This document shows positions 2,962 through 41,254 of a stretch of DNA of 64,000 nt, one piece after another (the first letter of the stretch is position 1; every line of letters begins with the position of its first letter). Source of the DNA: a virus (Duplodnaviria > Caudoviricetes); IMG/VR virus record IMGVR_UViG_3300023174_000048, positions 138,295 to 202,294 of that record; one strand, written 5' to 3'. The notes beneath the pieces were generated by a model. It had not been told where the DNA came from, did no database searches, and saw nothing but the letters and a program-made list of their open reading frames with translations. The position numbers and the translations under genes are program-made.

Positions 2962-2969
2962 ATTACACC
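2962..2969 (-). promoter_or_regulatory. Putative late-promoter motif (GGTGTAAT)
   Basis: In the intergenic gap, 34 nt upstream of ATG 2928. Matches the motif found upstream of other late genes. Confidence 0.5.
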
Positions 2970-2971
2970 AT

Positions 2972-10601: not shown

Positions 10602-13600
10602 TTAGGTTCTCATTGGGCGATTGTTTGCGGCTGAGTTTAAATTGCCTTCAAATTGGGTTCTATCGTATTTAGCTACTGTATTTTGACTTGTAATAGCTCC
10701 AGCATAATGACCAGCACTTTCTCCAGCACTTTTTCCAGCAGCAGAAGCGTGGTTTTGTACAGAGCCTACGTCTAATCTAACCGATTGTGTACCATTTATT
10801 TCTGCTGTTAATGATGTTGGTATTTGACTAGCAGTCTCTGACCAAGTATTTGCTGAACTAGCAATTGTTTGTGAGGCACTAGAGAATGTTTGGCCGAAAT
10901 TGTTTAATGTTTCAGTACTGCTTTGTATCATTTGACTATATGTTTCCATTCCTGATTCGAGTGCGGTGCTTAGTTGGTTCATAGCCTGTCCTACTGCAGC
11001 GCTAATACTAGACGATATATCATTAGATACACCACTACTACCACTACTGCCGCCACTACCTCCACTAACTAATCCAGCCTCAGCATAATATTTGGGCGCA
11101 ACTATTCCACCATTGGCCAAATAGTTAACAATTCCACCTCTATTGAAATGGCCACTATTTATAGCATTAAGAAGAGGCATATGTTGCTGACTAGACTCTC
11201 TGTTAACAACAAACTCTCCAGGAGTTAGCATGGCTGGTACAGTATCTGTTCCCTGAGATAATGATGGAACTAATGCTCCATTATTAGCATATACCAAGCC
11301 GCCAGAAGCATACATCATTCTACCACCAGCAGGCTTAGGAACATTCTGTATTTGTCTTTCTCTTTCTGCTTTTTTATATTCTTGTGACTGAGTGTAGTGG
11401 TCAGGAATAAGTCCTTGCGCCCCTAACTCTTGTGTTCTCTGTTCTATTCTTTTTGATTCTGCTGCATTATCGGCCATTTGTCTGGTTGTGGATTCTGTTT
11501 CTACAACTAATTGTGCTGCTGCTCTTCCAGGACTAAACATGTTCTCGCCAAAATTTTGAGCATACCCTTGCTGTCTTTGTCTATCATTTTCTTTAGCATA
11601 GTCTTCTGCTGTTTTTTCTCCGCTCATTATTGCTGCTGCTTCGGATGCGTAACTGCCAGCAGCATAACCTCCATAAGCAGCAACGGCGCCAATGCCTGTT
11701 GCGGCAGCAGGACTTGAGGTTCCTAGTCCAAAAACTTTTGCTCCATGACCAACAGAGTGTGCTGTGTGTCGTGCTTCTCCGATCATATCAATTCCTTCTC
11801 CAACCAATGTTGCTGTGTGTCCTGTACCAAAATGGGCATCAAGATTAGATCCCATTGTTCTCATATTTAATGGATTTCTTCCTCTGGTAGCAACAGCGGA
11901 CAATCCTGTAGAAGCAGCATTTCCAGCCAAAGAACTAGTTGTCATACCATGATGACCATGAGAATCATGACTGTCATGATCGTCAACATGACCACCATTA
12001 CCATAATATCTTACTAGTCCACCTTTATTATATCCATGGAATTTCATTAACTTCTTTAAAATTCTTTCTGCTATTTTATTGCCTTTTACTTTTTCGATAT
12101 TTTCTACTAATGTTGTTAGTAGTTCTGATGGATTCTTTTTTATAGCCGATGAGCTGTATCCATTCTTGCTCTTGCCACCACTAATAGAAGATAATCCACT
12201 AGGATCATCAACAAATTTTTCTATTTCTTTCATTAAGGGCGATTTCTGTAAACTTCTTTTTCCAAAAGGATCTTTTTTACTACCTTTCGTACTTTTTTGA
12301 AATAGATGACCAAGCTCGTGTTTCACAATACTCTCATCAGCATATTGAGATCCAAAAACTAGTTTTGATTCTGCTGTTGTCATACCAACTTTACTAGAAT
12401 TTGTTACTGGTCTATTTATTCCTTTTATTTGTCTACTAGCATTGATTTTGTCTAGATCAACCGATACGGATTGTGGTGTAGATTTTTCAACAAATTCTGA
12501 TAAGAACTTATTCCTTCGTGCTGGAGTAACATAATCAGCCAAATCACTTGCTAAATTCTCCTGAACTTGTCTGAATGACACCGGGTCTGTAACATTAACT
12601 TTTGATTTTGTGGCTGTTGTTGGCTTAACTGGTTTAGTTGGAATAGTTGGTTTAGTTGGTTTGGGTTTTACTATAGATGGTCCGGCAACTGTTGTTTTAG
12701 CTTTTCCTAACACGCTTTGGGTCGCTGTGCTATTTGGAACACCTTGATTAACAAGATCTTGAATCTGTTGATATTGTGCTGCTGTTATTTTGGGCTTAAC
12801 TTGTGGACCGGGTGTTGGCATAGTCAAATCAATATTTGATAATTTTTCATCCAATGCTCTGCTTCTTGCTGCTTTAGCTTTGGCCGCTAGTCTACCATAA
12901 TTACCATCATACTCTAATGGATTAATATCGTCTATGCTTCTGATTTTGGTGGGAGCAGACTCTGGGAATGTTACTGGCTTTGCTGGTTTTAAATTCTTAT
13001 AAGAAGAAGTAGTGCCTGATCTATTAAGATTTGGTCTTGAATAACTTGGGGCAATACCTCTAACTCCTATAACATCACCCATTTGAGTAGCAACATCTTG
13101 AACGCCCTCAACAAAATTATTAACTGCCCTTCCGGCTCCACGAGCACCAGGAATTCTACCACCCAATCTTCCTGCTCCTCTGGCAGTTGATGTAATAGCT
13201 CTATCTACTGTTCCAGCAACTCTGCCAACACTAGCAGCACCAGGTATTTTACCAGCAGCCCTACCAACACTAGAAACACCAGGTATTCTACTAGCGACCC
13301 TTCCAGCAGCCCCTGCCATTCGACCGGCAACATTAAATACTGCTCCTTCAGCATTAACTAATGCTCCTGCGCCTTGAGTGCTTCCATACGCAGTAGTTTG
13401 AGCAAATGCTGTACCAAAGCCAGCCCAACTATCCATACCACCAGCCAGCTCCACATTTCTAGCATCATTACGTTGTAATGCTGTTTGCTCACCAGTTTGT
13501 ATCGGCCCCATACCAGCAACAGCTTGTCCGGCTTCAACAAAACTAGTTGCTCCAGCACCCATAGCCCTTAGTCCAACATCGGCGGCCGCAGAAGTTGCTG

Positions 13601-16600
13601 CAGAATAAGCTCCCTGTTGATTATTTAGTCTGTCGCTGTTTGCCGTAAATGTTCTTGCTCTTATAGCAGCAACATCTTGAGCAGCCGCTATCTCTTGAGG
13701 AGATGGCATTGGTCTGCCATTAGCTCTAGCCTCATCATACATATTTTCGGCTGTTCTGTTTCTTAAATTATTTTCGTCTCCAATTTTAAAAGCTGTATCA
13801 TCTCCAGACATAGCATATCCAATACCTCCAACAATAGGAGATGCAACTGTTGCAACTGCTCCGGCAGTTATATTTGCCGCCCCATAAAGGGCGTCTCCAA
13901 TACCCTGAGTTACTCCTCCAACATATCCTACTGCTGCCGTAGCAGGATTGCTACTATTTATATATAATGATGCTTGTCTATCTTCTTCGGCTTTTTGCTG
14001 TTGTGCTCTAACCTTTTCTGCCGCACTAACTTGTTGGGCCCCTTCAAATTGTGCTATCGCTTCGCTATTTGCTTGATCCTGTAATAGTTGTTCTGTTGTT
14101 GGAACCTTATAGCTTGCAACAGATTCCTTATAAGGTTTAGGCATATATGATCTTTGTTCATCTCTATATTTGTCTCTTTGCTCTTCTTTAACTTTTCCTT
14201 CGGCTAAGAATTTATTAAATTTATTATCTATTTCTGCTGTTTGAGCATCTTCTTTAGCTTTATTTCTTTCATTGATTACTTGCTGTCTTCTTTGTTTCTT
14301 ATAAGCTTCTCTATTTCCTTCATCATCTCTCCATGCTCCTGATTCTAATAGTTGGTTAAATTCAACATCAAATGCTTGTTCTTGAGCTGCTATTTGTGCT
14401 CTTTTTTCTATTCCTATTTTTGTGCTAGTAATAGCACTATCTGCTTCTCTCTTTTTCTTCGTGTCGCTTGAAGTTGTAGCCGTTTGAATTGAAGAAGATA
14501 ATCCTGGACTAGCAGTTATTCTATAAACATTTTGTGTTTCTGCTTTTGCTCGTATTTTTGGATCATTACTATATTCTAATGGATCTGTAGCGCCAACAGA
14601 TTGATAAGAATTTATTTGACTATTCGGCATAAACAACTGATTTGGATATTTTATCATTGTCTCAGTCGCTAGTACATTCGATGGTGATCCAAGAGGAAAG
14701 TTAAACCAATCTCTGCGTGAGCTTTCTCTATCTCTAGTTGTTTTTTGAGACTCAAACCTTGGGGTATTAGGATCTCCTCCATATGTATAATTTGTTCCAG
14801 CAACATAATCTCCAGGCAACGATACTCTAGGACTTGGAACCATTGGACCAATATTAACGCCTAATCTTCCATCCTGATTTTTAATTTCTGGTGTTCTCAA
14901 ATTAACAGAAGTATTAGTCTGGGTTGCTTGTTGAGTTTGCTGTGCCTCATAAGCTCTATTATCGGCTATGCGATTAACCATTCCTTCTAAAGGATTTCTT
15001 GTTTGGTATTTTGGATCATTTGGATCTGGCTTTTGTAAAACCTTATTGGTAGTATAAGATGCTAATCCTGTTTGAACACCAGAAGAGACCGCAGGATCAG
15101 TTATATCAGGTCTTGCAGTAGTATACTGCTGTCTAATTCCTGATTCGATTGCGGCATTTTGTTGGGCAGCCTGTTGCTCATTGCTTGGTCTTGAGTAGCC
15201 TTCATTTATTCTAGAGGCCGTTGCTGGATCAAGACCGCTAGGATTTACTGCGTTGCTAGTTATTGGAGGCAACGCAGCACTAAATGATAGAGCACGTAAA
15301 CTTCCTCTATTTCTACGATCAGAACCTAACTCTTTTAGGGCTGATCTTTCTTCTGGTGTTATCTCATTAGACTGAGCACCTTTACGATAAGCACTATTTA
15401 CTAAAGAAGAAATATTACGATCTTTTTCTACAGTATATGGACCGACCTCTCTTTTTATTTGATTAGATTTCAATGTTGCATATTCTGTTTCTTCTTCTGG
15501 ACTTCTTCCTTTGCTTCCTTTCATCCACAATGATCGTCTTCGTGAGTCTTCAGATTTGATTTTTTTCTTCTCGTCAATAGCTTCTTGAGTTGGTCTAATT
15601 TTTGTTGTTGTTCCTCTGCCCCACGGAATAACATCTGCTCTTACTAAAGGAACCGGTAATGATGGTTGTATTACTGGTTGTGAAAATTCTTGTGGAGACA
15701 GCGACGTTTGAGCTATTGGAGTATTTAATGCTGCTGTTTCAGCATCGCGTGCTTTTTCAAATCTTTCTGTAGCTCTTTTCTTTTCTTCGTTAAAAAAATT
15801 AGCACCAACAATAGCAGAATTAGGATCCTCCTTTATGCTACCATATCCTGCATCGTTAGCGCTTCTGAGCTGTGCATCGTTTTCTTTATTATTATAATTA
15901 TCCCATCTATTTTGAAATTCTGGTTCATATTTTTTGGCTTCTGATTGTCTTTCATCTTCTGTCATCCCCATCCATCTACCATCGCCTACCTGAGATTGTG
16001 CCCAGCTAGATGATGTTCTAGAAACTACCTCATCAGGTCTTCCTCCAGTTGCTTCTGACATCATCCATGATTCTTTTTGAGCATCTATTCTTTCTTCTTT
16101 TCTTTTTTGTACTTCGCCACCCTGTGCTAAATAAACCACTCCGCCCTTACTATAATTTCCACTATTAATAGCTTTCAATAATGGCAAGTGTTCTGAGGTT
16201 GATCTTGCATTAATCACAAACTCGCCCGGAGTTAACATAGCAGGAACAGTATCAGTTCCTTGTGGTTGGAAATTTACTAATTGACCTTCACTAGCATAAA
16301 TTAATCCTCCGCGAGCCTTCGGAGGAGCAACTGGGGCGGCAACTCCGATATTTAATGGAACTTTAGCTCCGCCAGGAGCATTAATTCTACCTTCATTCAT
16401 ATCATTATTAAGCATACTAGCTTCAACAGTTGTTCTAAGATCATCTATACTAACCTTAAGGTTGGCATTTGCTGATACTAGAGCCTGCTGAGATTCTAAT
16501 AAAGCCAACTCTCCTTGTGCCTTAGTAGCATCAGCCTGTAATCCAACAGACTGTAAATATTTGCTAGAAGCTTCTTTCATTGCGGGATCAGCGTTAGGAT

Positions 16601-19600: not shown

Positions 19601-22600
19601 CTGCTTCTAAAAATTGTCGTTTTGCTACTGCTGTTTTAGCTTGATCTCTAACATTCTTTAATGCTTTTTCTGCTGCTATTATAGTGTCTATTGATGCTCC
19701 AGTAATCTTGAGTCTTTCAACATCCTTAGTCATTGCCTTTTCAATATCTTTATAAGATATGTCAGCTCCTGCCCCAACTTGTTCAAGAACTTTCTTAAAG
19801 CTTATCATGCTATAACCAGCTTCTTCAAAACCTTTTGTTAATAGTTTAATATTATTAACTAGTTCTGATGAAGCTTCTATACTTTTACTATCAATAGTTT
19901 CTGGTCTGGTTTTTAATTTTTGAACTGCTGGTTCAGCAAAACCTTTTAATCCTTTCATTATTTCTTCAATACTAAAAACACTACCTCCAGTAGCAAATCT
20001 TTGAATTACTCCTCCACCAACTACTCCTCCCTTATTATAACCCTGTAATTTATCCGCTTTATTTAATGTCTCTAACTTGCCATATCCTATTTTTTCTGCT
20101 GCTTTCTTATTAACAACAAATTCACCAGGAGTTAATAATGCAGGAACAGTGTCCTTTGATGATATTCCTGCTTGTCCTCCTTGAGCAAAGGTCTCGATAT
20201 TGGTTGGCTTCAAGGGAGATGATCCAACATATTTTAATGCTAATCCTAGTGGTTTTTCAAAAAGTTTGGATTCAAAAGAATTTACTAATTCGGGATCTCC
20301 AGATTGTATTCTGGACATAAGCTGACCCAATAAAGCCCCTTCTCTTACATCTCCTTCACTTCCGGCATAAATAGATTTTCTTGATCCTCCAGGCAAGGTA
20401 AACTCTGTTCCGTCTTCGGACTTTAATGTTTGAGATCCTTCTTGAACACGTACTCCAACCGACATCATCCCAGCGTCTGGATTTTTATCAAACTTACCTT
20501 TTAATCCGGTTTGATTTTCAGTAGGAGCATATTTATCTTTAAGAGTATCGTAATTATCATGCATCCATTGTACCACTAGTCCTTTTTGTAATTCATAATC
20601 TAAATCATAAGTTTTTGGATCTAAAGTTTCATCAAAACTTAATACCATTGGTTTTCCTGATCTATCTCCTTGAGCAACAGTGAAGTTGCTTCCTCCATTA
20701 ACTCTCATCTTAGCTTGTTGTTCTGCTTTATTCTTTTCTGTATATAAGTAGAATCCTTCTCCTTGACCATATCCTTTAGCAATATTAGAAAGGGCACCTT
20801 TTTCTTTAAAGCTCTTTAAAACACTATCATCAACTCCGGTATTGCTTCCGTGATATAGTTTAACTTGTCCTCCAGTAGCATATCCTCTATTTTTTCTCCA
20901 CATTTTTTCATCATTAGTTTTGGTCTCAAACTCTTTTGGCTTGCGACCTTGTTTTTCCATAGCCTCTTGTATTCTTTTTTGTTTATTAGCCTGGGCAAGT
21001 TCATATCTTTCTTGTTCTGGTGATGTTTTTTTAGATGGTATTAGTCCAAATCTTTTGTTTATCTCCCAGTCTGGAATAGCATAGTCTTTATATCTATTAT
21101 CTAATCGTTCTTCTAATTTTGCTGTGAGTTCTTCTTGGCTCATGCCCAAAGTCTTTGCTCGTGCGGCAATATCGGGTGGGGAATATGATCCTCTTACCCA
21201 GCCACCCTCGGAAAGCATTTGTATGTCTTCTTTGACGGGTTCTGGAATTCCATATTGTTGTCTAAAATGTTTTTGGAATTCTTCAACAGCCTTGCCTCTA
21301 CTATTACTATCTATTGTTCTTTTAACTTCTGTTGGAATATCAGGATCGATACCAAATATTTTTGCTGCTTTAGATCCGATGCCCATTGGAAAGTCAATCG
21401 GACGAGTTCTTAAAGCATCGTCTAATATTGTAGCATCTGCTGATCCAAAAATTTGTTCTAGTAAAGCGCCTTCAATATTACCCTGACCTAATGTTTCTCT
21501 TTGTTTTTTAGTTAATTTCTTTGGAGATATTCCAAGAAGTTTGGCTGCTCCGCCTACAATTTCTTCTGTTTGACCACTAAGATAATCAATTACATTTTGA
21601 TATTGATTTGGTAATCCTCTCTGAACTATTGAAGCATCTATTGATCTTTCTTGTCCAGACGAATCAACTCCAAGATTCCAAGTTTCTGGCCCTAATAATC
21701 CAGTATATCCCAATGGATTTAATCCAACTAGTCCTAATTGTTTTGACGATAATACAGCGCTAGTTGTTTCTGCTAGTGACGTGGCCTTTTGAGTTCCTTG
21801 TGATTCATTAAATTTGTCTATTAGATAGTCTCTTGTTGCAATATAGTAAGCGAGCTTGTCTGCTTTTGTTTCTGGTCTAAATGCAGAATTCCAGTATTTT
21901 AATTTTCCTCCTTCGGCGGTATCTCTTACTGTTTTTCCTGAGAATGGACCAAAACTTGCGTCATTTGGTAATCTGTCTGTTCCAAATCTTTTTAATATCT
22001 CTGTTCCTTGTGCTGGTAATATCCCAGAAGACTTCTTGACCTGAGTAGCCTTTTCTACATTTTTTAGTATTGCTTCTTGTAGTCCAGAAGGCATTGCTGT
22101 TGGCACCCCACTAAATTCACCGGCCATGCCTTCAGACAATTGGGCCGATATGACATCTTTAGATAAGTCGGATGGCTGTGCTGATACTGATGCTCTGCGT
22201 GATGGATCTAATCCATAAGCATCTGGATATTTAGCAGATAATAAGGAGATTATATTGTGTGCTCTGTAGCCCAAAAGACTGGAACTCAATTCGTCTCTTT
22301 TCTCTCTCATAGCTTCAATTTGGGCTACTACATCTGGAGCATTGTCTCTTACCCTTTGAGTAATATTTTTGCCGTATGGGCCTCCTGGAGCTTCTGCTAA
22401 CATTTTTTGAATTTCAGCATTTGTTTGAGCTTTTTGATTTGCTCCATATTTTGTTATTTCTTCAATAAGCATAGGAACCATCACGCTGCGATTTCTTAGC
22501 TGTGCTCTATTGCCCATGAGAACAGAAGCAACTTCTGGGCTAACAAAACTAGTTAAAGCTTCATCATCTCCATTAATCACTGCTTGCCTAACTTTAGTAG

Positions 22601-25600
22601 CACTAATATCGTCTATCCTTGGAATATCTGTTACGTCAACTCCTGCTTTTTCATATTTTTGAAGAGCACCGGCTTTTTTCCCTGATGTGATTGCTAATGC
22701 TCCTTTTAGTTTAGCAAATTTTCTACGACCATTAGCTCCTTGAACCTCCATCATTTTTGGCAAAACATCTCCTCTGCCAGTTGATTCGGCACTTATCATG
22801 CCTCCAGGAAAATTAACTCCTGCTAATAATGCTCTAAAATCTGCTGGAAATATGCCATATCGTGCAGCATGTGCGAGCTTCTCTGCGTCGGTATCTCCTT
22901 CTCCTCTGTCCATCGATAAATTAGGAGCAACACTCACTATAATATCTTCTGCTGAAGCATTTGGATTTCTAGAAATCATATTACTTAATAAAGTATCAAA
23001 TGCTCCACGATGGCCTCTGGTCGGTGGAGCAAATCCACCAGTGTAGTATCCACCAGCCTGAACAATTTCTGGCAATTCTTCTTCAGTCTTACGTCTTAAA
23101 CCAAAACCTCCTGGTTTGCGACCAAGAACGGTTGCCCTTTTACCTAATTCATCCCTTAATATACTCTCTTCTACTGTAAAATCTCTAGGAGCAATATTTG
23201 TAATTCCTGGTTTACGACCATATAGACCTTCCCCCGTTAAATCTCTCTGAACTCTATTAGCTCCTATTTGATCTTGTTCTTCTGTTGTATTGGAACTTAA
23301 TATATATGCTCTATCAACATCTTTTAAATATGCATCTAATTTTTCTTGACTAGCAGTAGATGTTAAGACTATAACCTCATTAACTTTAGCAATATCTTCA
23401 GGGCTAAGAATTGAAGAGCGAATAGTTTTTCTTAAAGTTGCATCATCTGGAGATCCTTTTCCCGTAGCCAAACTACTTTTGCCTGATCCTGCTGCTCCAG
23501 CGATTGCTGTTAATTTTGATAAAGACTCTTCTTTTCTTGCTTGTGCTGCTAATTTTGCTAATTCTCTGCTATATAAACTAGTATTTGTAATTCCAAGTTT
23601 TTCCATGGCTGGTCCAACAATATCGGCATTTGCTGGATCTCGTAAAACATCTGTATCTATAATTCCTATATTTCTTTGTACTTTTCCACCAGCAGCATAA
23701 GTTTGTCTCTGAATACCAGCACTACCCAATAGATCAGTTAGTGTAGAATCTAAAGCTCCTTGAAGATTACTATCAAGTCTAGGATAGTTCTGAACTAGTG
23801 TTGTTAAAAATTCTTCTTTCCCACTATCTTCTATTCTATCAATATAAGATTGAGAAATACTATTATCTAATAATACCTGATTAACTTCTGGATTTAATGG
23901 TTTAAAATCTTTAGCCTTTTTAATACCAAGAGATTTTGCCCAAAGAGAGGATGCGGCGGTGGCTGCTTCGGGAGTTTTAGCAGGCTTGTCTCCCCTGCTA
24001 ATAGATCGATTTTGTTGTATAATTTGATCTAATGTTCCAACTTTGTATGAACGTCCATATACAACATCCGAACTATTATAGCTGGACTCTAAAGCATCAA
24101 ATGCATCTGCTAAATCATTATTATCTCCACTAAATAGTGAAACAACTCTTGATTTATATTTATCAAAACTCTCTGATGATCGTGTTCTTAATCCTTGAAA
24201 TAATTGATGGGTCATTTCATGATAAAAAGTATCATTTTTTCTACCAGAAAGTCTTCCGGTGCTCATGGTGATCGCGCCACGGCCAGTAGCTTTAGCTGTG
24301 GTTTGCATCTGATCCATAGCAGTTAATTCTGCTTGGTTTTTTAATTTTTTAGTATTAGATATCTTCATTTGAAGATCATTAATCTCATCCCAAGTTTGTT
24401 TAGCTAATGCTTCATCATATGAAAAAGATCCGTCATCAAAAGTTTTTACTGGTGTTTTTATTATTTTCTTCAATTCTTTTTGTTTTTCTGCTACTAATTT
24501 TTCATATCCATAAAGATCCTGGTCATTGGCCTCTGTATATCCAGAACCAGATAGGTCATAGCCAGATGTGCTTTTAGTACCCATACCCGTTCTATCAAAT
24601 TGACCAAGACCTTTTAATCCCAGATCAGTAAAATCAATATGACTTGGTAGAGCTAATGATAAATCTTCTTTTGGTAGTCCTATGAATTTAGCAAAGTCAC
24701 TCATTCTTCTATAAATAGCGCTATTAGCTAATTTACTCTTGAAAGAATCTGCAAACTGCTTTCTATCGAATGGTATTGAGTCAAAAGCTTCGGTTGCTTT
24801 TGCTTGATCCACTTTGAATCTAAAGTCTTCTGGATATTCCAAGAAGGATCCTCCACTAAAAGCTTTATCAACTTGTTCTTTATTTAGCTTGGCGTCTATT
24901 TCTTTGAAATAGGCATTACTAATTCTTTTGGGAAATGGAAAAGTTCCACTTCCAAATGATCGGGTTTCTTTTGCTTTTCCTCCGGCCATGAATTTTTGAA
25001 TTTTTCCACCAAGATTTTTTTCTGTAAATCTACCTGTTTTAAATTCATCAGATATAGTTAAAATATTTGAATCGCCTTCTATAAGTAATCTATTATATCT
25101 ATCTTTATCTCCTTGTACAATTTGTTTCTTTAACTGCTTCAATTTACCTTCATCTGCATTATTCAGATTTTTTTTCAGTTCTTCTGTAGCCTTGTTTCCA
25201 GCCTCCACAGCCGTTAGTCCTGAATCTGTTACTATTGTTTCTGGTGGTATAACCCAATCATTACTCTTTTTTCCTGTTTTTTTAACCTTACTTAATATAT
25301 TAGCATTTTTTTCATATTTTGATATTTGATCTAATTTTGCTTGACTGACTTTACTTTCTCCAGTTTTTTTAGAGTTAGCTCTCTCGCCCATAGTCTCATA
25401 TGCATCAAAACCTCCTACTCTGAATTCTACTTCAAAAGGCTTTGGTCTAGGAATAGCAGTTGCAATAAAGCTATCTCCATCTTTTACTTTTTTAATACTT
25501 TCAAGTGATCTTATCTCAACAGCACCACCGCTAGCAAACCCTTTTCTTCGGTTTGATCCTCCAGCTCTTATACTTCCTCCACCACCATACTTATTCATAT

Positions 25601-27299
25601 TATGAAGATTATCCGATCCTATAGTCTCAACAGCTTTTTTTCGTATCACAAATTCTCCTGGCTCTAACATTGCAGGAACAGTATCTCCACTACCAGTGCC
25701 TGGAACAACACCTCCTCTTGCGAATTTTCTAATTACTCCACCACTAGCTTTACCATCTGGTCCTCTTTTAACTCCAGTACTAAAACCACTAGCAAATTGA
25801 GTTAAAGCTTTGGCGCCCTTAAATGCTGTTATAACAGCAAGAGCGGGTAATATTCCTTTAACAGCATCTGTCACTTTAATTAGTCCACTAGCTAAACTTA
25901 AAGCTCCTCTTATTAATGACTGAAAACCTTTTGATTGTCCTATTTCTCTGAATAGAGCAAAAAACTCTTGTCTTACTTTGCTAATTTGATTGGCCAAAGA
26001 AAGTTGTGCTGTTGCAGCATCTTTCGCTAATGATCCTTGACCAGCTTGTGCAGTCTTTAATGCTTCTTGAGCAACTGTGAACTGCTGAATAAGCGGAATA
26101 ACTTTACCAATTTGTCGGAATCCACCAAGTTCTTCAACTATCTTAGAGAACTGAGCAGTTCTTGGATCAATTCCACTCAATCCCTTACTTAATAATTCAA
26201 CAGCTTTATAGGCTCCTACGAATTTACCTTCGGTATCAGTTAGATTAACTCCAAACTCTTTGAGAGAATCAATTGTGCTTCCTCTCTGAATACGAGTAAA
26301 AATAGTTCTTAAGCCAGTAGCAATAGTTTCAGCACTTTCACGAGTTGTAGCACGAACACTTGTGAACACTGCTATAAATTCATTTAAAGCATCCTTACCT
26401 TCACTAACTCCTTTACTTGCAGTTGCAAATACGCTACCCGTTCTTTGAACAGCAGTAATAATGTCAGAAGATTCAACAGCGAATCTTGCAGCAACAGTAT
26501 TTACAGCACCTAGTGCTCCTTCTAAATCATCAGCACTAATACCAAACTGTCTCATTAATGCGATACTTCCTTCTACTGTCTCATTCATATTATCAAATGA
26601 TGGAGCTAAACTACTTAAAGCTAAAGCTCTTAATGCTTTTTCTGTTTCTCTCGCACTCAAACCAGCCTGTGCTAATGTAGAAGCAACAGAGGTTAAATCT
26701 TTAGAACTAACACCAAATGTTGTTGACAGATTTGTAATTTGTTCTTGTAGTTTTGCAAGGCCAGATGACGATTCTCCGGTTACCTGTTGTAATTTAACTA
26801 ATTCTTTATCATAATCAATAAATGCTTGAACACCCTGACTAATACTATTTGTTAATCCGTATATAACACTAGTAACAGTACTAAATGCTACGAATCTTCT
26901 AATGGCAAGACCAGCCTGTTTACCGAACTCTTGCATCTCTGCTGATGCTGATCCAAGATCTTTTGCTGACGAGGCTGATGCTTTGTTAAGTTTATTAACA
27001 GCATTAGCTGCTGCATTTATTTGTTGTGGAACGTTATTTATTTTGACGCTATTTATGCTGTTACCAAAAGCTTTGATAGCTGCTGAAGCAGCAGTAGCAG
27101 ACGTTGTCGTTGAACCAAATGCGGCATTTAAGCCTTTGAGAGACGATGACAAAGCCGCAACATTTTTAGTAACAGCAGGATCAAGCTTAAAAGTAATATT
27201 TGCATTAATGTTACCAAGATCTTTTTTAATTTGTGCAGCAATTTGCTTTACATTTGTTGGTCCTTGTAAATTCAGTTGTGCAGTTAAGTTGAATGCCAT
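10602..27299 (-). CDS. Giant tape measure protein (5565 aa) with embedded enzymatic cargo domains
   Basis: Follows the tail tube and chaperones. TP901-like core near the N-terminus (RRFVAFS..QAFIDYDKELVKLQQVTG..LAQAGL..ETIATGLRTIFTRI), long A/K/E helical stretches and four DTVPA(M/L)LxPGEFV repeats. Confidence 0.9.
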   Translation of the reverse strand: MAFNLTAQLNLQGPTNVKQIAAQIKKDLGNINANITFKLDPAVTKNVAALSSSLKGLNAAFGSTTTSATAASAAIKAFGNSINSVKINNVPQQINAAANAVNKLNKASASSAKDLGSASAEMQEFGKQAGLAIRRFVAFSTVTSVIYGLTNSISQGVQAFIDYDKELVKLQQVTGESSSGLAKLQEQITNLSTTFGVSSKDLTSVASTLAQAGLSARETEKALRALALSSLAPSFDNMNETVEGSIALMRQFGISADDLEGALGAVNTVAARFAVESSDIITAVQRTGSVFATASKGVSEGKDALNEFIAVFTSVRATTRESAETIATGLRTIFTRIQRGSTIDSLKEFGVNLTDTEGKFVGAYKAVELLSKGLSGIDPRTAQFSKIVEELGGFRQIGKVIPLIQQFTVAQEALKTAQAGQGSLAKDAATAQLSLANQISKVRQEFFALFREIGQSKGFQSLIRGALSLASGLIKVTDAVKGILPALAVITAFKGAKALTQFASGFSTGVKRGPDGKASGGVIRKFARGGVVPGTGSGDTVPAMLEPGEFVIRKKAVETIGSDNLHNMNKYGGGGSIRAGGSNRRKGFASGGAVEIRSLESIKKVKDGDSFIATAIPRPKPFEVEFRVGGFDAYETMGERANSKKTGESKVSQAKLDQISKYEKNANILSKVKKTGKKSNDWVIPPETIVTDSGLTAVEAGNKATEELKKNLNNADEGKLKQLKKQIVQGDKDRYNRLLIEGDSNILTISDEFKTGRFTEKNLGGKIQKFMAGGKAKETRSFGSGTFPFPKRISNAYFKEIDAKLNKEQVDKAFSGGSFLEYPEDFRFKVDQAKATEAFDSIPFDRKQFADSFKSKLANSAIYRRMSDFAKFIGLPKEDLSLALPSHIDFTDLGLKGLGQFDRTGMGTKSTSGYDLSGSGYTEANDQDLYGYEKLVAEKQKELKKIIKTPVKTFDDGSFSYDEALAKQTWDEINDLQMKISNTKKLKNQAELTAMDQMQTTAKATGRGAITMSTGRLSGRKNDTFYHEMTHQLFQGLRTRSSESFDKYKSRVVSLFSGDNNDLADAFDALESSYNSSDVVYGRSYKVGTLDQIIQQNRSISRGDKPAKTPEAATAASSLWAKSLGIKKAKDFKPLNPEVNQVLLDNSISQSYIDRIEDSGKEEFLTTLVQNYPRLDSNLQGALDSTLTDLLGSAGIQRQTYAAGGKVQRNIGIIDTDVLRDPANADIVGPAMEKLGITNTSLYSRELAKLAAQARKEESLSKLTAIAGAAGSGKSSLATGKGSPDDATLRKTIRSSILSPEDIAKVNEVIVLTSTASQEKLDAYLKDVDRAYILSSNTTEEQDQIGANRVQRDLTGEGLYGRKPGITNIAPRDFTVEESILRDELGKRATVLGRKPGGFGLRRKTEEELPEIVQAGGYYTGGFAPPTRGHRGAFDTLLSNMISRNPNASAEDIIVSVAPNLSMDRGEGDTDAEKLAHAARYGIFPADFRALLAGVNFPGGMISAESTGRGDVLPKMMEVQGANGRRKFAKLKGALAITSGKKAGALQKYEKAGVDVTDIPRIDDISATKVRQAVINGDDEALTSFVSPEVASVLMGNRAQLRNRSVMVPMLIEEITKYGANQKAQTNAEIQKMLAEAPGGPYGKNITQRVRDNAPDVVAQIEAMREKRDELSSSLLGYRAHNIISLLSAKYPDAYGLDPSRRASVSAQPSDLSKDVISAQLSEGMAGEFSGVPTAMPSGLQEAILKNVEKATQVKKSSGILPAQGTEILKRFGTDRLPNDASFGPFSGKTVRDTAEGGKLKYWNSAFRPETKADKLAYYIATRDYLIDKFNESQGTQKATSLAETTSAVLSSKQLGLVGLNPLGYTGLLGPETWNLGVDSSGQERSIDASIVQRGLPNQYQNVIDYLSGQTEEIVGGAAKLLGISPKKLTKKQRETLGQGNIEGALLEQIFGSADATILDDALRTRPIDFPMGIGSKAAKIFGIDPDIPTEVKRTIDSNSRGKAVEEFQKHFRQQYGIPEPVKEDIQMLSEGGWVRGSYSPPDIAARAKTLGMSQEELTAKLEERLDNRYKDYAIPDWEINKRFGLIPSKKTSPEQERYELAQANKQKRIQEAMEKQGRKPKEFETKTNDEKMWRKNRGYATGGQVKLYHGSNTGVDDSVLKSFKEKGALSNIAKGYGQGEGFYLYTEKNKAEQQAKMRVNGGSNFTVAQGDRSGKPMVLSFDETLDPKTYDLDYELQKGLVVQWMHDNYDTLKDKYAPTENQTGLKGKFDKNPDAGMMSVGVRVQEGSQTLKSEDGTEFTLPGGSRKSIYAGSEGDVREGALLGQLMSRIQSGDPELVNSFESKLFEKPLGLALKYVGSSPLKPTNIETFAQGGQAGISSKDTVPALLTPGEFVVNKKAAEKIGYGKLETLNKADKLQGYNKGGVVGGGVIQRFATGGSVFSIEEIMKGLKGFAEPAVQKLKTRPETIDSKSIEASSELVNNIKLLTKGFEEAGYSMISFKKVLEQVGAGADISYKDIEKAMTKDVERLKITGASIDTIIAAEKALKNVRDQAKTAVAKRQFLEAGLKESKTGKVLGSGGAQQAILTEAEKKEKLITAQRKSQIEKDLIKKDPSLLGDKDKLERRTNRRLEKEQRQIKEQAFSSATEKVTGIKRSELSGMGIGGADIQSYVSQSMTDRKTLAQMDKQLIAMRLEEYKNAGTVRGVSVKSASEALSLAKEEVSKRREMINEMAKEQGEKGVGAGGLTDIRNSPIKKAVQERYFSGTMSQGIGTALGDVGMVAGLVGGQGKNIANLMYDTSTDEGKIAAAGKGAAIEQAGSTLATGLTTASQLMAINPLLGGLTALGTVVYAATDYFTDFTGAQETAALEMEKNLRFEEVAASEKDLAKAFKDFEKDLGNIDLQKALDKALVRSSESSLKAVSAETKVAQNEKGKTRTWTEFLSGAEKPKMDTQDFNELDSKIAERNADSGDKAFALISQKINTGASVESIQADKELIGARRALVLADEDALKTVRARIMEEGGYEKVSKEKQDAILDEVANQKILTNVQVQSAIKTKQMSDALEAADKAGRKLAASFEKLSNIISESVNRIKFESDVRKSSAEKSRSALRGQSEDNGPKLRELNVLENPNAYSEKDFNQALQSATAGVDEKTRNQLIGGAQLQQQLPNAITKSIAEKLSTKGSLGVEEAKTEAIKTTNEQIDKTNLSDEQKTSLKKQAETRINNLAEEAKKKNDTPQAELDAFREGLGDADNILGAFGVKTLEAVKALSSFKQGALADFSEGLRDASKAAKDAQNYFKKARDIRAQGDMNLREVMTGVGETYDEKQARVMGDVAGLAGGETSVGGIKNRIVDLQAQRTAVEEKRQGMSDPDELKKSAIQLRSLDDQLRDTREALDTLASSTELVEKAFDDLKNVRDLQKNRESFVNTLLTNTPEEADKLNKTFIRLQRNLSGGLNGASNQRDARKAFNQTLRETGSVREATKAGNTVLANQRKETLALSQDPGVRAAQELNIRNQYAQGKGKPGVSADQAVADYFKQQQLQLTKSMAIESGMMNNPLVQQSIAAMENPNADPAMKEASSKYLQSVGLQADATKAQGELALLESQQALVSANANLKVSIDDLRTTVEASMLNNDMNEGRINAPGGAKVPLNIGVAAPVAPPKARGGLIYASEGQLVNFQPQGTDTVPAMLTPGEFVINARSTSEHLPLLKAINSGNYSKGGVVYLAQGGEVQKRKEERIDAQKESWMMSEATGGRPDEVVSRTSSSWAQSQVGDGRWMGMTEDERQSEAKKYEPEFQNRWDNYNNKENDAQLRSANDAGYGSIKEDPNSAIVGANFFNEEKKRATERFEKARDAETAALNTPIAQTSLSPQEFSQPVIQPSLPVPLVRADVIPWGRGTTTKIRPTQEAIDEKKKIKSEDSRRRSLWMKGSKGRSPEEETEYATLKSNQIKREVGPYTVEKDRNISSLVNSAYRKGAQSNEITPEERSALKELGSDRRNRGSLRALSFSAALPPITSNAVNPSGLDPATASRINEGYSRPSNEQQAAQQNAAIESGIRQQYTTARPDITDPAVSSGVQTGLASYTTNKVLQKPDPNDPKYQTRNPLEGMVNRIADNRAYEAQQTQQATQTNTSVNLRTPEIKNQDGRLGVNIGPMVPSPRVSLPGDYVAGTNYTYGGDPNTPRFESQKTTRDRESSRRDWFNFPLGSPSNVLATETMIKYPNQLFMPNSQINSYQSVGATDPLEYSNDPKIRAKAETQNVYRITASPGLSSSIQTATTSSDTKKKREADSAITSTKIGIEKRAQIAAQEQAFDVEFNQLLESGAWRDDEGNREAYKKQRRQQVINERNKAKEDAQTAEIDNKFNKFLAEGKVKEEQRDKYRDEQRSYMPKPYKESVASYKVPTTEQLLQDQANSEAIAQFEGAQQVSAAEKVRAQQQKAEEDRQASLYINSSNPATAAVGYVGGVTQGIGDALYGAANITAGAVATVASPIVGGIGYAMSGDDTAFKIGDENNLRNRTAENMYDEARANGRPMPSPQEIAAAQDVAAIRARTFTANSDRLNNQQGAYSAATSAAADVGLRAMGAGATSFVEAGQAVAGMGPIQTGEQTALQRNDARNVELAGGMDSWAGFGTAFAQTTAYGSTQGAGALVNAEGAVFNVAGRMAGAAGRVASRIPGVSSVGRAAGKIPGAASVGRVAGTVDRAITSTARGAGRLGGRIPGARGAGRAVNNFVEGVQDVATQMGDVIGVRGIAPSYSRPNLNRSGTTSSYKNLKPAKPVTFPESAPTKIRSIDDINPLEYDGNYGRLAAKAKAARSRALDEKLSNIDLTMPTPGPQVKPKITAAQYQQIQDLVNQGVPNSTATQSVLGKAKTTVAGPSIVKPKPTKPTIPTKPVKPTTATKSKVNVTDPVSFRQVQENLASDLADYVTPARRNKFLSEFVEKSTPQSVSVDLDKINASRQIKGINRPVTNSSKVGMTTAESKLVFGSQYADESIVKHELGHLFQKSTKGSKKDPFGKRSLQKSPLMKEIEKFVDDPSGLSSISGGKSKNGYSSSAIKKNPSELLTTLVENIEKVKGNKIAERILKKLMKFHGYNKGGLVRYYGNGGHVDDHDSHDSHGHHGMTTSSLAGNAASTGLSAVATRGRNPLNMRTMGSNLDAHFGTGHTATLVGEGIDMIGEARHTAHSVGHGAKVFGLGTSSPAAATGIGAVAAYGGYAAGSYASEAAAIMSGEKTAEDYAKENDRQRQQGYAQNFGENMFSPGRAAAQLVVETESTTRQMADNAAESKRIEQRTQELGAQGLIPDHYTQSQEYKKAERERQIQNVPKPAGGRMMYASGGLVYANNGALVPSLSQGTDTVPAMLTPGEFVVNRESSQQHMPLLNAINSGHFNRGGIVNYLANGGIVAPKYYAEAGLVSGGSGGSSGSSGVSNDISSSISAAVGQAMNQLSTALESGMETYSQMIQSSTETLNNFGQTFSSASQTIASSANTWSETASQIPTSLTAEINGTQSVRLDVGSVQNHASAAGKSAGESAGHYAGAITSQNTVAKYDRTQFEGNLNSAANNRPMRT
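11990..12600 (-). other. TMP domain: second HExxH zinc metallopeptidase-like domain
   Basis: KHELGH at 12306..12320 (aa ~4994) and downstream NPSELLTTLVE, paralleling EEFLTTLVQ of the first copy. Boundaries approximate. Confidence 0.55.
20200..20880 (-). other. TMP domain: ADP-ribosyltransferase-like (H-Y-acidic clade)
   Basis: KLYHGS (H ~aa 2150), GEGFYLY (Y ~aa 2184), later DLDYE. Begins directly after YATGG. Confidence 0.55.
21240..21920 (-). other. TMP domain: PD-(D/E)xK restriction-endonuclease-like
   Basis: GALLEQ (E ~1948), RPIDFP (D ~1969), PTEVKR (E-x-K ~1991-1993). Boundaries approximate. Confidence 0.5.
22500..23050 (-). other. TMP domain: HxGH nucleotidyltransferase (NMNAT/cytidylyltransferase-like)
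   Basis: YTGGFAPPTRGH (23010..23039) and C-terminal ISATKVR (~22588..22608), matching the (T/H)xGH and ISSTxIR signatures. Confidence 0.7.
23060..23690 (-). other. TMP domain: P-loop small-molecule/nucleotide kinase-like
   Basis: Walker A GAAGSGKS at 23475..23498 after a hydrophobic strand (LTAIA), and a lid-like NRVQRD. Confidence 0.6.
23700..24975 (-). other. TMP domain: first HExxH zinc metallopeptidase-like domain
   Basis: FYHEMTH at 24207..24221 (aa ~1027) and distal GKEEFLTTLVQ (~23796..23820). Bounded by FMAGG and YAAGG. Confidence 0.6.
25040..25520 (-). other. TMP domain: staphylococcal nuclease (SNase/thermonuclease)-like
   Basis: KVKDGDSF (25470..25481), FRVGGFDAYET, AGNKATEELK and DKDRYNRLL, in the SNase order DGDT / R..GIDAPE / G..A / DRYGR.L. 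Confidence 0.7.
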
Positions 27300-27401: not shown

Positions 27402-28301
27402 CTAAGCTGGAGCAACCTCTTTTGATTCAGAAACGACGGGCTGAGCTGGTTGAGTCTCTGGCTCGACTGTTTCTGTTTTTGCTGTTGGTTCATCTTTTTT
27501 GTCTTCTTCTAAGATAACTGGGTTTCCGTTTTCATCTAGGAACGGCTGTGCATCAACGAGATAATCTCCATCAGAAGTTACTCTGTTACCATACTTATCA
27601 ACAAAGTTACCTTCTTCGTCTATAAATCGTCCACTCTCATCAATTAGCCTACTTTCCGCATCAATTAGTCTGCCCTTCTTGTCTACTAATCGTAGCTTAT
27701 CGTCAACAAACTTAAACTTCTTTAAGAATTTGTTTTCTGGTAAATTACTTTCATAGTCATTATCCAAACCATACAGCATATTGGCCAAGTTTTGTGCTCC
27801 TAGTAGTCCAACCTGATCAGTTGATCTATTAAGATAGTCTTCCATATTGTTGAAATACGGTTGCTTGCTATCATTATACACCACACAAACACTAACTAAA
27901 TAGTTAAATCTAGCATTATCAGCTTGACCTTCGGCACTATGGTTGTCTAGAGATGTACGAACACTGATAAGATCTCGTATTTCATCTCTGACGCCCTTCA
28001 TTTTAATTGCAAGGTCTTTGGCTTCGTTTAAACTAAATCCACCCTTAGCAAGTCTCTTCTCGCCATCAAGCAACTCTTTTTGCAAGGTGGTGAACTTAGC
28101 CTGTTTTTCATCGTTCCATAAACCCTGATCTTCTAATAGATCATCTAATTTTGCCCTCACAACACTTTTGCTTTTAATAGCATCAGTAAAAGCTTGATTA
28201 TAAACTTTTTGGGCTTCTCTTTGATCATTTAAAGACGGTGTTTTAACAAGAAACTCTTTTTCTGCACCATCAACTGTTGTCTTAAAAGTCTTAGTCTTCA
28301 T
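27402..28301 (-). CDS. Putative tail assembly chaperone
   Basis: Directly upstream of TMP. Start moved to MKTKTF (GGAG SD upstream). Contains short D..GR.ID..G repeats and an acidic tail. Confidence 0.55.
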   Translation of the reverse strand: MKTKTFKTTVDGAEKEFLVKTPSLNDQREAQKVYNQAFTDAIKSKSVVRAKLDDLLEDQGLWNDEKQAKFTTLQKELLDGEKRLAKGGFSLNEAKDLAIKMKGVRDEIRDLISVRTSLDNHSAEGQADNARFNYLVSVCVVYNDSKQPYFNNMEDYLNRSTDQVGLLGAQNLANMLYGLDNDYESNLPENKFLKKFKFVDDKLRLVDKKGRLIDAESRLIDESGRFIDEEGNFVDKYGNRVTSDGDYLVDAQPFLDENGNPVILEEDKKDEPTAKTETVEPETQPAQPVVSESKEVAPA

Positions 28302-41252: not shown

Positions 41253-41254
41253 GA

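Follow-up and report, generated by a model that had tools for sequence, protein, structure and literature searches.

A giant tape measure protein in a freshwater jumbo phage lineage, with conserved enzyme-like modules that suggest a swappable payload ejected before the DNA

A single, uninterrupted ORF of 5,565 aa, designated P0001, occupies positions 10602-27299 (minus strand) of the window, that is, of the whole 64,000-nucleotide stretch of DNA that was analysed. Its source is an uncultured freshwater (lake-water) jumbo phage, and its product is the tape measure protein (TMP). The analysis suggests that a string of conserved, enzyme-like modules has been spliced into this TMP, and that the inner protein of the tail doubles as a swappable payload that is ejected before the DNA. 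The original prediction, made from the sequence alone, had read the product as one ORF with a TP901-like TMP core, enzyme cargo, a helical region and a second HExxH peptidase. That ORF and that architecture proved to be real, the latter conserved under selection in more than 100 relatives, and the motifs it quoted are all present at the residues given (DGDS 607, HEMTH 1027, GAAGSGKS 1268, TRGH 1427, LYHGS 2150 and HELGH 4994), as are the PD-(D/E)xK motif residues E1948, D1969 and E1991-x-K1993.

The tape measure gene and its modular plan

The TMP core (aa 17-506) matched PF10145 over aa 185-391, scoring 88.9 bits where the cut-off is 33.2 (E 5.5e-25), and also matched 14 PHROG tape-measure families, which bears out the predicted TP901-like core. 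No other ORF of the tail gene module matched a TMP family, leaving P0001 as the sole TMP candidate there. The gene lies within a head-tail module, with TerL, portal, and MCP genes upstream and large tail proteins carrying fn3 and FGE-sulfatase domains downstream, and the same gene order was found in relative L001. Misassembly or a fusion of genes was ruled out because more than 100 independent assemblies hold equally long ORFs. A chaperone frameshift upstream was also ruled out, the 100-aa and 308-aa ORFs there being adjacent and each having its own ATG and ribosome-binding site. A search of 185,579 species genomes gave no host or prophage clues, and the locus was not found in the RNA runs searched.

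The relatives of P0001 are more than 100 metagenomic proteins of 3,000-7,700 aa with a common plan, and the 101 giant ones were placed in a module map. About 93 of the 101 keep the TP901-type core. The cargo modules of the lineage have [FY]xxGG linkers and repeated DTVPAMLTPGEFV cassettes between them, and from relative to relative the modules are gained, lost, or found in another order, so that the comparison with related TMPs called for in the original prediction did reveal cargo modules that are present, absent or re-ordered. In P0001, the TMP core and four DTVPAMLTPGEFV cassettes frame two blocks of cargo. The N-proximal block (aa 596-2373) comprises the SNase-like module, a large HExxH module, a unit made up of a P-loop domain, a nucleotidyltransferase (NTase) and M5, and an ART-fold domain, with [FY]xxGG between them. 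The features of the gene, in order from the N-terminus of the protein, are as follows.

25725..27299, minus strand: TP901-type tape measure core, aa 1-525 (PF10145, PHROG, hydropathy)
25515..25724, minus strand: cassette 1 (FARGG...GSGDTVPAMLEPGEFV...FASGG), aa 526-595 (repeat in the TMPs of 130 phage records)
24984..25514, minus strand: M1, SNase-like module carrying a Lys-rich insert, aa 596-772 (alignment and hhalign)
23691..24974, minus strand: M2, HExxH module, putative zincin-like metallopeptidase, aa 776-1203 (invariant motif, AF2 model)
23070..23681, minus strand: P-loop NTPase (kinase-like), aa 1207-1410, Walker A G1268-K1274 (alignment invariants, weak matches)
22200..23069, minus strand: HIGH-motif nucleotidyltransferase, aa 1411-1700 (PF16581/PF01467 and PDB profile matches)
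21204..22199, minus strand: M5, E/D/ExK-motif domain invariably joined to the NTase with no linker between them, aa 1701-2032 (alignment, AF2)
20868..21203, minus strand: M5b, helical insert present in few relatives only, aa 2033-2144 (module map, AF2)
20181..20867, minus strand: M6, ADP-ribosyltransferase-fold domain, aa 2145-2373 (H2150, Y2184, E2236)
19965..20180, minus strand: cassette 2 (FAQGG...DTVPALLTPGEFV...FATGG), aa 2374-2445 (repeat analysis)
16320..19964, minus strand: helix-prone region rich in A/E/L/K/Q/R, aa 2446-3660, with a hydrophobic segment at 2831-2853 (composition, hydropathy)
16095..16319, minus strand: cassette 3, aa 3661-3735 (repeat analysis)
11340..16094, minus strand: variable second block, aa 3736-5320 (few relatives share it)
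12024..12602, minus strand: M7, short HExxH module (HELGH 4994), aa 4900-5092 (motif, hhalign)
11085..11339, minus strand: cassette 4, aa 5321-5405 (repeat analysis)
10602..11084, minus strand: C-terminal tail rich in Ser/Gly/Thr/Gln, aa 5406-5565 plus the stop (composition)

P0001 contains 17 copies of [FY]xxGG, compared with 2.4 +/- 1.5 in shuffled sequences, and the motif marks 52-100% of module borders, its background frequency being 5%. It was seen at the M34/M5 junction in only 1 of 77 cases, and the P-loop domain, the NTase and M5 form one unit without internal linkers. The DTVPAMLTPGEFV cassette is widespread in ordinary TMPs, including annotated ones of 130 phage records. Cassette 1 is also a repeat at the DNA level (family D1). 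A role of the cassettes as recombination substrates is unsupported, since their four DNA copies are just 44 nt long and 68-82% identical.

Hydropathy placed hydrophobic segments at aa 131-149, 462-500, 2831-2853, and 4472-4499. The region that follows the cargo (aa ~2450-3660) is rich in A/E/L/K/Q/R/M, in agreement with the long, helical, ruler-like region that had been predicted, the composition being helix-prone at aa 2550-3600, and aa 3050-3700 are conserved in about 80 relatives; from its composition, aa 2446-3660 is probably the ruler or channel-forming part. The second block contains polar low-complexity stretches, the hydrophobic segment at 4472-4499, M7, and a His-rich stretch at ~5103-5117.

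Evidence for the enzyme-like modules

P0001 itself lies under the Pfam thresholds for every cargo domain, and profile searches against PDB with the SNase, ART, HExxH, and M5 modules returned chance matches only, being informative for the NTase alone. The catalytic-type residues of the cargo modules are invariant even though the relatives share only about 35-50% identity, and no free drift of these residues was seen among close relatives; conservation of catalytic residues in homologs, a check proposed with the original prediction, was thus found across diverged relatives.

The 20 aligned M1 sequences all have D607, G608, D609, R627, D632 (R+5), E635 (D+3), and R737. The Ca2+ and catalytic residues of Staphylococcus aureus nuclease are D19-G-D21, R35, D40, E43, and R87, and we take the invariant D-G-D/R/D/E/R spacing of M1 to be that of the staphylococcal enzyme. 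P0001 gave no direct match to PF00565, even at E 5, while the modules of two relatives did match it, P0029 (in the same slot as M1) at 1.6e-7 and P0063 at 0.014. An hhalign comparison of the M1 alignment with these two modules gave 92.4% (E 5e-7), the aligned part being limited to the N-terminal 50 columns; short M1 fragments were misplaced by MAFFT in joint alignments. With the spacing of catalytic residues and the profile link to PF00565-positive modules, there is good support for an SNase-like nuclease, as had been predicted at about aa 607.

The HExxH motif of M2 (Y1026-H1027-E1028-x-x-H1031-Q1032) is invariant in 51 sequences and is accompanied by S-x-D1078-x-x-Y1081-G. Folded alone, M2 gave an AF2 model with a pLDDT of 90, in which Y-H-E-x-T-H-Q lies in a helix (247-265) that follows a strand (234-238). 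Candidates for a third zinc ligand, chosen by sequence only, are the invariant D1068 and D1078 (of S-x-D-x-x-Y-G) and E1157/E1162/E1163. No convincing fold relative of M2 was detected in Foldseek PDB, VIA wide, AFDB clusters or ESM Atlas; we refrain from calling the fold new, as the model is a little larger than the size from which splitting is advised for fold searches. Among proteins of similar size, free-standing homologues were limited to two short matches, probably fragments. The second predicted HExxH site, HELGH at 4994, falls in M7, where the motif is kept in 6 sequences, and M7 is probably a paralogue of the M2 core, as an hhalign comparison with the M2 alignment (72.6%, E 3.2e-5) indicates. 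For the two predicted peptidases, then, the invariant motif and the confident M2 model hold up, but a zincin fold match was not found.

The P-loop domain that begins the central unit gave weak matches to nucleoside/nucleotide kinases and gluconate kinase, and its ESM Atlas neighbours are viral proteins combining Zeta_toxin/AAA_33 with CTP_transf_like (score 0.88). The kinase predicted at about residue 1268 does have a Walker A motif, but the designation 'kinase' draws its support from that motif only. All 51 NTase sequences share G-G-F-x-P-x-T1427-x-G-H1430 and I-S1566-x-T1568-x-x-R1571 unchanged. PF16581 was matched by 45 of 51 members (best 6.3e-6) and PF01467 by 19 of 51 (best 9.7e-4), all below gathering scores, and the profile matched MJ0951 in PDB at 0.0023, with NMNAT, NaMNAT, PPAT, and NadR between 0.13 and 2.3. 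There is good evidence, from motifs and Pfam profiles, for a HIGH-motif nucleotidyltransferase at the level of the cytidylyltransferase-like superfamily (PF01467, PF16581, PF05636), as predicted for HxGH at about 1427, but the direct matches lean to the HIGH_NTase1/MJ0951 branch (PRK13670/HIGH_NTase1) and not to NMNAT. Specificity for NMN is only hinted at: the nearest non-TMP matches of the P-loop plus NTase profile are proteins of 180-255 aa (E 1e-4 to 1e-3), and 6 of the 10 scanned matched NMNAT/NaMNAT NCBIfams, a transitive and weak link from the NTase to NMNAT-like proteins. This profile retrieved only 126 proteins among 1.84 billion, almost all of them giant and TMP-like, and no free-standing P-loop/NTase unit was found among proteins of similar size. 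In NadR the NMNAT domain precedes the P-loop kinase; the unit has the opposite order (P-loop, NTase, then M5) and a third domain, and none of its members matched a NadR model.

M5 carries invariant E1943, E1948, D1969, E1991, and K1993, and its PD-(D/E)xK-like motif residues are invariant in 20-34 sequences. The AF2 model is confident at aa ~1739-1909 and 1969-2019; E1948 falls in a helix and E-V-K in a strand, with a low-confidence stretch in between. Neither Pfam, PDB nor the fold libraries held a match, the ESM Atlas feature search returned none that was usable, and no nuclease was among the matches listed for the M5 region, which the ART domain dominated. Of the PD-(D/E)xK nuclease predicted at ~1948-1993, the motif is invariant, but no fold or family match was found. 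Since no relatives of M2 or M5 could be recognised by fold, 'peptidase' and 'nuclease' are terms taken from their motifs alone.

For the ART predicted at about 2150, the fold is strongly supported by a structural match and an H-Y-E triad. M6 was assigned to the ADP-ribosyltransferase superfamily (H-Y-E clade: PARP/diphtheria-toxin-like; DUF3990; ART-PolyVal), and one AFDB match was named 'ART-PolyVal-like'. Across 38 sequences, some with as little as 34% identity, H2150 and E2236 do not vary and Y2184 is kept in at least 90%. Their contexts are H-G-S, G-x-G-F-Y, and Y-E, and the residues were assigned to the triad by motif context and not by superposition. Model and motifs together strongly support an ART fold, with a predicted use of NAD.

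Proposed function and alternative explanations

We think it probable that the TMP of this lineage is a modular enzyme carrier, expelled at infection, with cargo that acts in the host cytoplasm before phage expression. Like T5 pb2 and P23-45 gp96, the TMP would sit in the tail lumen in a metastable state, unfolded at least in part, until it is expelled. The C-terminus, whose small HELGH module is placed like the muralytic peptidase of pb2, would exit first and handle the envelope, and the hydrophobic segments would build a channel. The N-proximal cargo would enter the cytoplasm next, just before the DNA, a destination proposed because its ATP- and NAD-dependent modules work only there. The cargo would then refold, perhaps once cut at the linkers, and act on the nucleic acids and proteins of the host, and on its pools of nucleotides and NAD, ahead of phage gene expression. 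TMPs reach the cell envelope, and to our knowledge cytoplasmic delivery of a TMP is documented only for P23-45. Delivery of the cargo into the host is proposed here by analogy with T5 pb2 and the TMP-fused RNA polymerase of P23-45. The HExxH modules may be self-processing proteases, and the NTase may make NAD+, given its superfamily membership and its weak, transitive link to NMNAT-like proteins. Some 1,800 globular cargo residues per chain, in a probable trimer, would be hard to fit in folded form into a lumen of ~4 nm.

A more elaborate version, which we regard as tentative, sees in the lineage TMP a programmable, recombination-shuffled cartridge in which the in-cis HExxH modules cut apart the cassettes at their [FY]xxGG borders after ejection, freeing a nuclease, an ART, and a NadR-like cofactor-rebuilding unit. 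That kinase/adenylyltransferase unit would rebuild NAD+ or another nucleotide cofactor, and the freed enzymes would enter the cytoplasm ahead of the DNA as a pre-loaded counter to abortive-infection defences, for example NAD+ depletion.

Staphylococcal nuclease is a Ca2+-dependent extracellular enzyme, and this would suit a TMP that serves only to breach the envelope, its HExxH modules cutting peptidoglycan cross-links, its SNase clearing extracellular or periplasmic DNA, and the rest being adhesion or spacer sequence. The location of M7 near the C-terminus behind a hydrophobic segment, like pb2, points the same way, as do the annotation of SPbeta-type TMPs with transglycosylase and the presence in T5 pb2 and P23-45 gp96 of metallopeptidase domains 'characteristic of many TMPs' (PMC10038345; bioRxiv 10.1101/2022.12.01.518664). 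We consider this unlikely, however, as NAD+ is required by an ART whose H-Y-E triad is intact and ATP by a unit with Walker A and a HIGH NTase, both of them cytoplasmic cofactors, and these are the commonest cargo modules, occurring in 78 and 42 of 101 relatives. The cargo might instead be excised during tail assembly, by HExxH or a prohead-type protease, from a late polyprotein, and act in the producing cell or be discarded unpackaged. Lambda gpH and T5 pb2 are indeed processed proteolytically in tail morphogenesis (PMC10038345), the linkers at module borders resemble processing sites, and the steric difficulty of holding the cargo inside the lumen would be removed; yet the cleaved fragment of T5 remains in the tail (PMC10038345), and enzymes that act late require no linkage to a TMP. 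Physical linkage is argued to be a selected trait because the modules sit between the TMP core and the cassettes in more than 100 relatives and never as free genes, a search among proteins of matching size having given just two short matches for M2 and none for the P-loop/NTase unit, and excision at assembly appears distinctly improbable to us.

That the modules are mostly structural, being decayed enzyme folds kept as length spacers or lumen fillers of a very long tail, with their motifs as relics, is the least credible of these explanations, and we would be surprised if it were correct. It would accommodate the sub-threshold Pfam scores of P0001 for every cargo domain and the large insert in M1, and a TMP of ~5,000 aa can set a tail of 800 nm in P23-45 (bioRxiv 10.1101/2022.12.01.518664). 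Against this, catalytic-type residues have stayed invariant while their surroundings diverged to 35-40% identity, and spacers are not expected to come and go as discrete cassettes with intact active sites.

If the cargo is delivered as in the enzyme-carrier reading, the TMP would be, beyond a ruler and channel former, a general protein-delivery vehicle with a payload that evolves by cassette exchange, and a single documented case, the virion RNA polymerase of P23-45, would become a principle. It would also explain how phages without capsid-internal effector proteins pre-empt fast defences. The lineage further points to new enzyme families found almost only in giant TMPs, namely the P-loop/NTase/M5 unit and the HExxH module, which folds confidently but is unmatched. 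To engineers who wish to load contractile injection systems or phage tails with cargo, it offers a natural model whose linkers are conserved and whose scaffold is compatible with a tube. The storage of ~200 kDa of globular domains per chain in such a narrow lumen is a physical puzzle.

Comparison with known systems

No description of multi-enzyme TMPs of this kind was found in the literature searched, which agrees with the original prediction that the combination is undescribed in a TMP, but the concept is less unprecedented than was implied, given P23-45, T5 pb2, and the effectors of contractile injection systems. One of the closest known systems is gp96 of Thermus phage P23-45, a TMP of 5,002 aa that carries a virion RNA polymerase at its N-terminus (Chaban et al., bioRxiv 10.1101/2022.12.01.518664; PMC10770324). 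Both are giant TMPs with N-proximally fused enzyme sequence, a metallopeptidase (putative in P0001), and membrane segments, and the gp96 enzyme is also proposed to pass through the tail channel and to act at the very start of infection. Gp96, however, carries one enzyme (a two-barrel RNAP) where P0001 has a string of 4-6 unrelated modules, and, unlike in the P0001 lineage, no linker/cassette system or module shuffling has been described for it. No Thermus phage was among the tblastn matches of P0001, which has no detectable sequence similarity to P23-45.

T5 pb2 is a metastable trimer in the tail lumen that is expelled on receptor binding, with possible refolding, and it is cut between a hydrophobic stretch and a C-terminal, muralytic metallopeptidase part (Linares et al. 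2023, PMC10038345). P0001 has its DTVPAMLTPGEFV cassette in common with many ordinary TMPs, but the enzymatic parts of pb2 and other muralytic TMPs are aimed at the cell wall, whereas the P0001 cargo is ten times larger and of a cytoplasmic type of chemistry (NAD+, ATP, nucleic acid). Contractile injection systems have modular effectors that are related to TMPs, and two of these, Tme from Streptomyces davawensis and Sle1 from S. lividans (Nagakubo et al., PMC11126660, PMC13277306), resemble P0001 in having a tape-measure-like scaffold inside a tail-like tube and exchangeable functional domains that differ between relatives. They belong to bacterial systems and have one functional domain per protein, while P0001 belongs to an infectious phage and has many modules; in sequence they are presumably unrelated to P0001.

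In the polyvalent proteins of phages and conjugative elements, a single virion-associated polypeptide joins enzymatic domains of disparate kinds (ART, nucleases, nucleotide-metabolism enzymes), and the HExxH metallopeptidase domains interspersed among them have been proposed to cleave it (Iyer, Burroughs, Anand, de Souza, Aravind 2017, PMC5512222). P0001 is similar in combining several biochemically disparate domains in one polypeptide among virion genes. The text of PMC5512222 makes no mention of tape measure proteins, the carriers named there being MuF/portal-associated head proteins, N4-type vRNAP, and T4SS substrates, whereas the carrier in P0001 is a TMP. A HIGH NTase plus P-loop unit is absent from the passages of that paper that were searched, in which 'nucleotidyltransferase' denotes the Pol-beta type, and M2 has no fold match that would group it with the MPTases of polyvalent proteins. 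T4 Alt, an ART, and N4 vRNAP are pre-made proteins that are injected with the DNA and act before phage transcription (cited in PMC5512222, PMC7824862); these are separate proteins stored in the capsid, whereas the modules of P0001 are part of the TMP of the tail.

The giant gene and its surroundings

The 5,565-codon ORF encoding the tape measure protein (TMP) P0001 is uninterrupted (window 10602-27299, minus strand), and the genes flanking it, all on the minus strand too, form with it a virion module.

Genes of the virion module
57390-59414, minus strand, large terminase
55128-57332, minus strand, portal
52016-53035, minus strand, major head protein
37033-50429, minus strand, very large fibre-like proteins
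after the giant ORF, minus strand, 829-aa protein with fn3 domains
7143-10598, minus strand, 1,151-aa protein (FGE-sulfatase-type domain), immediately after the TMP gene

Residues 17-506 of P0001 score 88.9 bits against the tape measure family PF10145, whose cut-off is 33.2, and were matched by 14 PHROG tape-measure families; known phages, such as SPbeta (YomI, ~24% identity), were matched by tblastn in this part only. Metagenomes of lake and fresh water contain the phage DNA (at least 12 studies), and no relatives were found in 185,579 species genomes.

The 1,151-aa protein occupies the distal-tail/hub position, an arrangement retained in the relative L001, and its formylglycine-generating-enzyme-like domain (PF03781, E 2.5e-11, aa 861-995) is unusual for a tail-tip protein. 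Four very large fibre/spike-like ORFs (1,621 aa, BppL_N motif; 1,430 aa; 360 aa; 1,057 aa, right-handed beta-helix) lie between the head and tail-tube/TMP genes (37033-51183, minus strand), whereas in most long-tailed phages such genes follow those of the baseplate; a further ORF there, of 233 aa and on the same strand, has a fibre N-terminal motif. A 332-aa virion-module protein (34915-35913, minus strand) carries a C-terminal proprotein-convertase P-domain (PF01483, E 2e-10), and just past the terminase, adjoining the structural module, lies a homologue of nucleotide-sugar epimerases (phrog_540, E 1e-71; 60150-61160, minus strand). Directly upstream of the TMP gene, in the tail assembly chaperone position, are ORFs of 100 aa and ~300 aa (27402-28593, minus strand); the C-terminus of the longer one is acidic and rich in repeats. 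Each is a gene in its own right, with its own start, and no frameshift signal was seen.

Enzyme-like modules of P0001

In module M6 (aa 2145-2373), H2150 (L-Y-H-G-S) and E2236 (D-L-D-Y-E) were invariant across 38 sequences with identities as low as 34%, and Y2184 (G-x-G-F-Y) nearly so (at least 90%). Matches among AFDB clusters were a 206-aa unnamed protein (E 2.5e-11, TM 0.71 by hit) and DUF3990, PARP and ART-PolyVal entries; the fold of the ADP-ribosyltransferase (ART) that the original prediction placed near aa 2150 is strongly supported. A nuclease (SNase) had been proposed near aa 607. In M1 (aa 596-772), D607-G-D609, R627, D632, E635 and R737 were invariant across 20 sequences (32-50% identical apart from the closest four), with the spacing (R+5=D, D+3=E) of staphylococcal nuclease. 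M1 of P0001 itself had no Pfam match; modules in the same slot of relatives P0029 and P0063 matched PF00565 (1.6e-7 and 0.014), and profile-profile comparison linked M1 to them (92.4%, E 5e-7) over the first 50 columns only, with a Lys-rich insert downstream. Residues, spacing and profile link together suggest an SNase-like module.

The P-loop and nucleotidyltransferase (NTase) unit M3/4 (aa 1207-1700) has an invariant Walker A (G1268...K1274), G-G-F-x-P-x-T1427-x-G-H1430 and I-S1566-x-T1568-x-x-R1571. PF16581 was matched by 45 of 51 members (best 6.3e-6) and PF01467 by 19 of 51; against PDB, the profile found MJ0951 (0.0023) and, weakly, NMNAT, NaMNAT, PPAT and NadR, the last with a domain order differing from that of M3/4. 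When 1.84 billion representatives were searched exhaustively with the M3/4 profile, only 126 proteins came back, nearly all of them giants that carry the module around residue ~600-2,000. Its weak tail consisted of 180-255-aa proteins, and six of ten scanned matched NMNAT/NaMNAT families, including NadD, archaeal NMNAT, NadM and the NadR domain. The closest ESM Atlas clusters (score 0.88) were viral Zeta_toxin/AAA_33 + CTP_transf_like proteins, which is no more than a lead, and direct NCBIfam matches (PRK13670 nucleotidyltransferase, nucleoside/nucleotide kinase) were marginal. Membership in the NTase superfamily is well supported; the proposed kinase drew marginal matches, and NAD+ synthesis by the NTase is possible.

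In M5 (aa 1700-2032), invariant E1943, E1948, D1969, E1991 and K1993 fit the PD-(D/E)xK signature expected at aa 1948-1993; a search for a family or fold match gave none, and the predicted model was confident in parts only. The second HExxH motif (M7, aa 4994) is kept in the module's five relatives, and M7 aligned with the core of M2, the module of the first motif (72.6%, E 3.2e-5). Beyond this HELGH module and its Y-x-x-G-G linkers, a His/Asp-rich stretch H-V-D-D-H-D-S-H-D-S-H-G-H-H-G (aa ~5103-5117, window ~11949-11993) is a possible metal-binding site.

Relatives, cassettes and linkers

Searching with the cargo region, that is the enzyme-like modules, recovered 101 further proteins (3,075-7,733 aa), almost all with PF10145; their contigs reach 247 kb.

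Prevalence of P0001 segments (relatives, of 101, mapped onto P0001)
aa 1-525, TMP core, ~93
aa 596-772, M1, 20-37
aa 776-1203, M2, ~58
aa 1207-1700, M3/4, ~78
aa 1700-2032, M5, ~43-48 over full length
aa 2033-2144, insert, few
aa 2145-2373, M6, 42
aa 2446-3660, helix-prone region, 43-83 (~80 for aa 3050-3700)
aa 3736-5320, variable second block, <10
aa ~5321-5405, C-terminal cassette, most

Cargo modules were present, absent or reordered among these TMPs, the comparison that the original prediction had called for: M2 precedes M3/4 in some relatives and in others follows it at a distance of ~1,000 residues, and M6 lies near residue 4,400-4,600 in P0071 and P0088. The lineage's repertoire is wider than P0001 alone displays, with EF-hands, an R-S-E type ART (Pfam-positive in P0067, PF03496), canonical SNase, PF03983 and PF28597 lacking counterparts there; extra cargo occurs in P0054, P0055, P0071, P0067, P0029, P0042 and P0099, the EF-hands as pairs. 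Essentially no free-standing homologues of M2 and M3/4 were found.

A cassette (a.GG.iya..g..v.f.p.GTDTVPAMLTPGEFVvNk...L.aINng) recurs at aa 539, 2383, 3683 and 5352; most relatives have 2-6 copies (364 across 102 proteins). It is a generic TMP element, since annotated TMPs of ~130 cultured phages contain it, including Gordonia, Clavibacter, Achromobacter and Stenotrophomonas phages, and its recurrence therefore marks the whole polypeptide, beyond the N-terminus, as TMP-like. The same cassette (DTVPAMLTPGEFV; P0001 aa 505-600, window 25500-25787) matched no Pfam family and occurs also in the T4-like cyanophages S-SM2, P-TIM68 and Bellamy, in proteins annotated merely hypothetical or 'transmembrane'.

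The linker [FY]xxGG occurs 17 times in P0001; shuffled sequences had 2.4 +/- 1.5 copies, and at most 7 in 500 shuffles. In relatives it flanks M1 (20/20 and 19/20), M2 (52/58 and 54/58) and M6 (23/42 and 33/42) and precedes M3/4 (71/77), on a background of 5%. Only 1/77 M3/4-M5 junctions have it, so that P-loop, NTase and M5 form one unit.

Proposed delivery and comparison with known systems

T5 pb2 is a metastable trimer filling the tail lumen, cut after R1127 between a hydrophobic stretch and the muralytic metallopeptidase part, and receptor binding expels both pieces (PMC10038345). By analogy, the C-terminal end of P0001 (tail, cassette 4, HELGH module, hydrophobic segment 4472-4499) would exit first and act on the envelope; the helix-prone region and hydrophobic segment 2831-2853 would form a conduit; and the N-proximal cargo would enter last, immediately before the DNA. 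This cargo would reach the cytoplasm; ATP and NAD+ are found only there. M2/M7 may cut [FY]xxGG, an idea modelled on what has been proposed for the MPTases of polyvalent proteins (PMC5512222).

That the modules serve as a toolkit acting in the envelope only is unlikely, and a late polyprotein whose cargo stays unpackaged slightly more so; decayed domains retained as spacers are a very improbable reading. Against all three, the most conserved cargo modules have cytoplasm-type chemistry and occur near-exclusively within TMPs, and catalytic residues are invariant.

Injection of the N-proximal cargo would have a parallel in P23-45, whose gp96 is a 5,002-aa TMP with a virion RNA polymerase in its N-terminal 1,200 residues that transcribes pre-early genes, proposed as a chain of folded domains ~3.5 nm wide in a 4.5-nm channel (bioRxiv 10.1101/2022.12.01.518664); the polymerase occupies the same relative position as the P0001 cargo block. 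The original prediction knew of no description of this enzyme combination in a TMP, and searches of the available literature for tape measures that carry an ART, a nuclease, cargo or a fused enzyme gave only P23-45, TMPs with muralytic domains, and the CIS effectors Tme/Sle1; the polyvalent-protein paper nowhere mentions tape measure proteins (PMC5512222). A virion protein as effector carrier and an enzyme fused to a TMP are already known; what is remarkable in P0001 is the number and diversity of its modules, their cassette-like exchange, and module families near-absent elsewhere.
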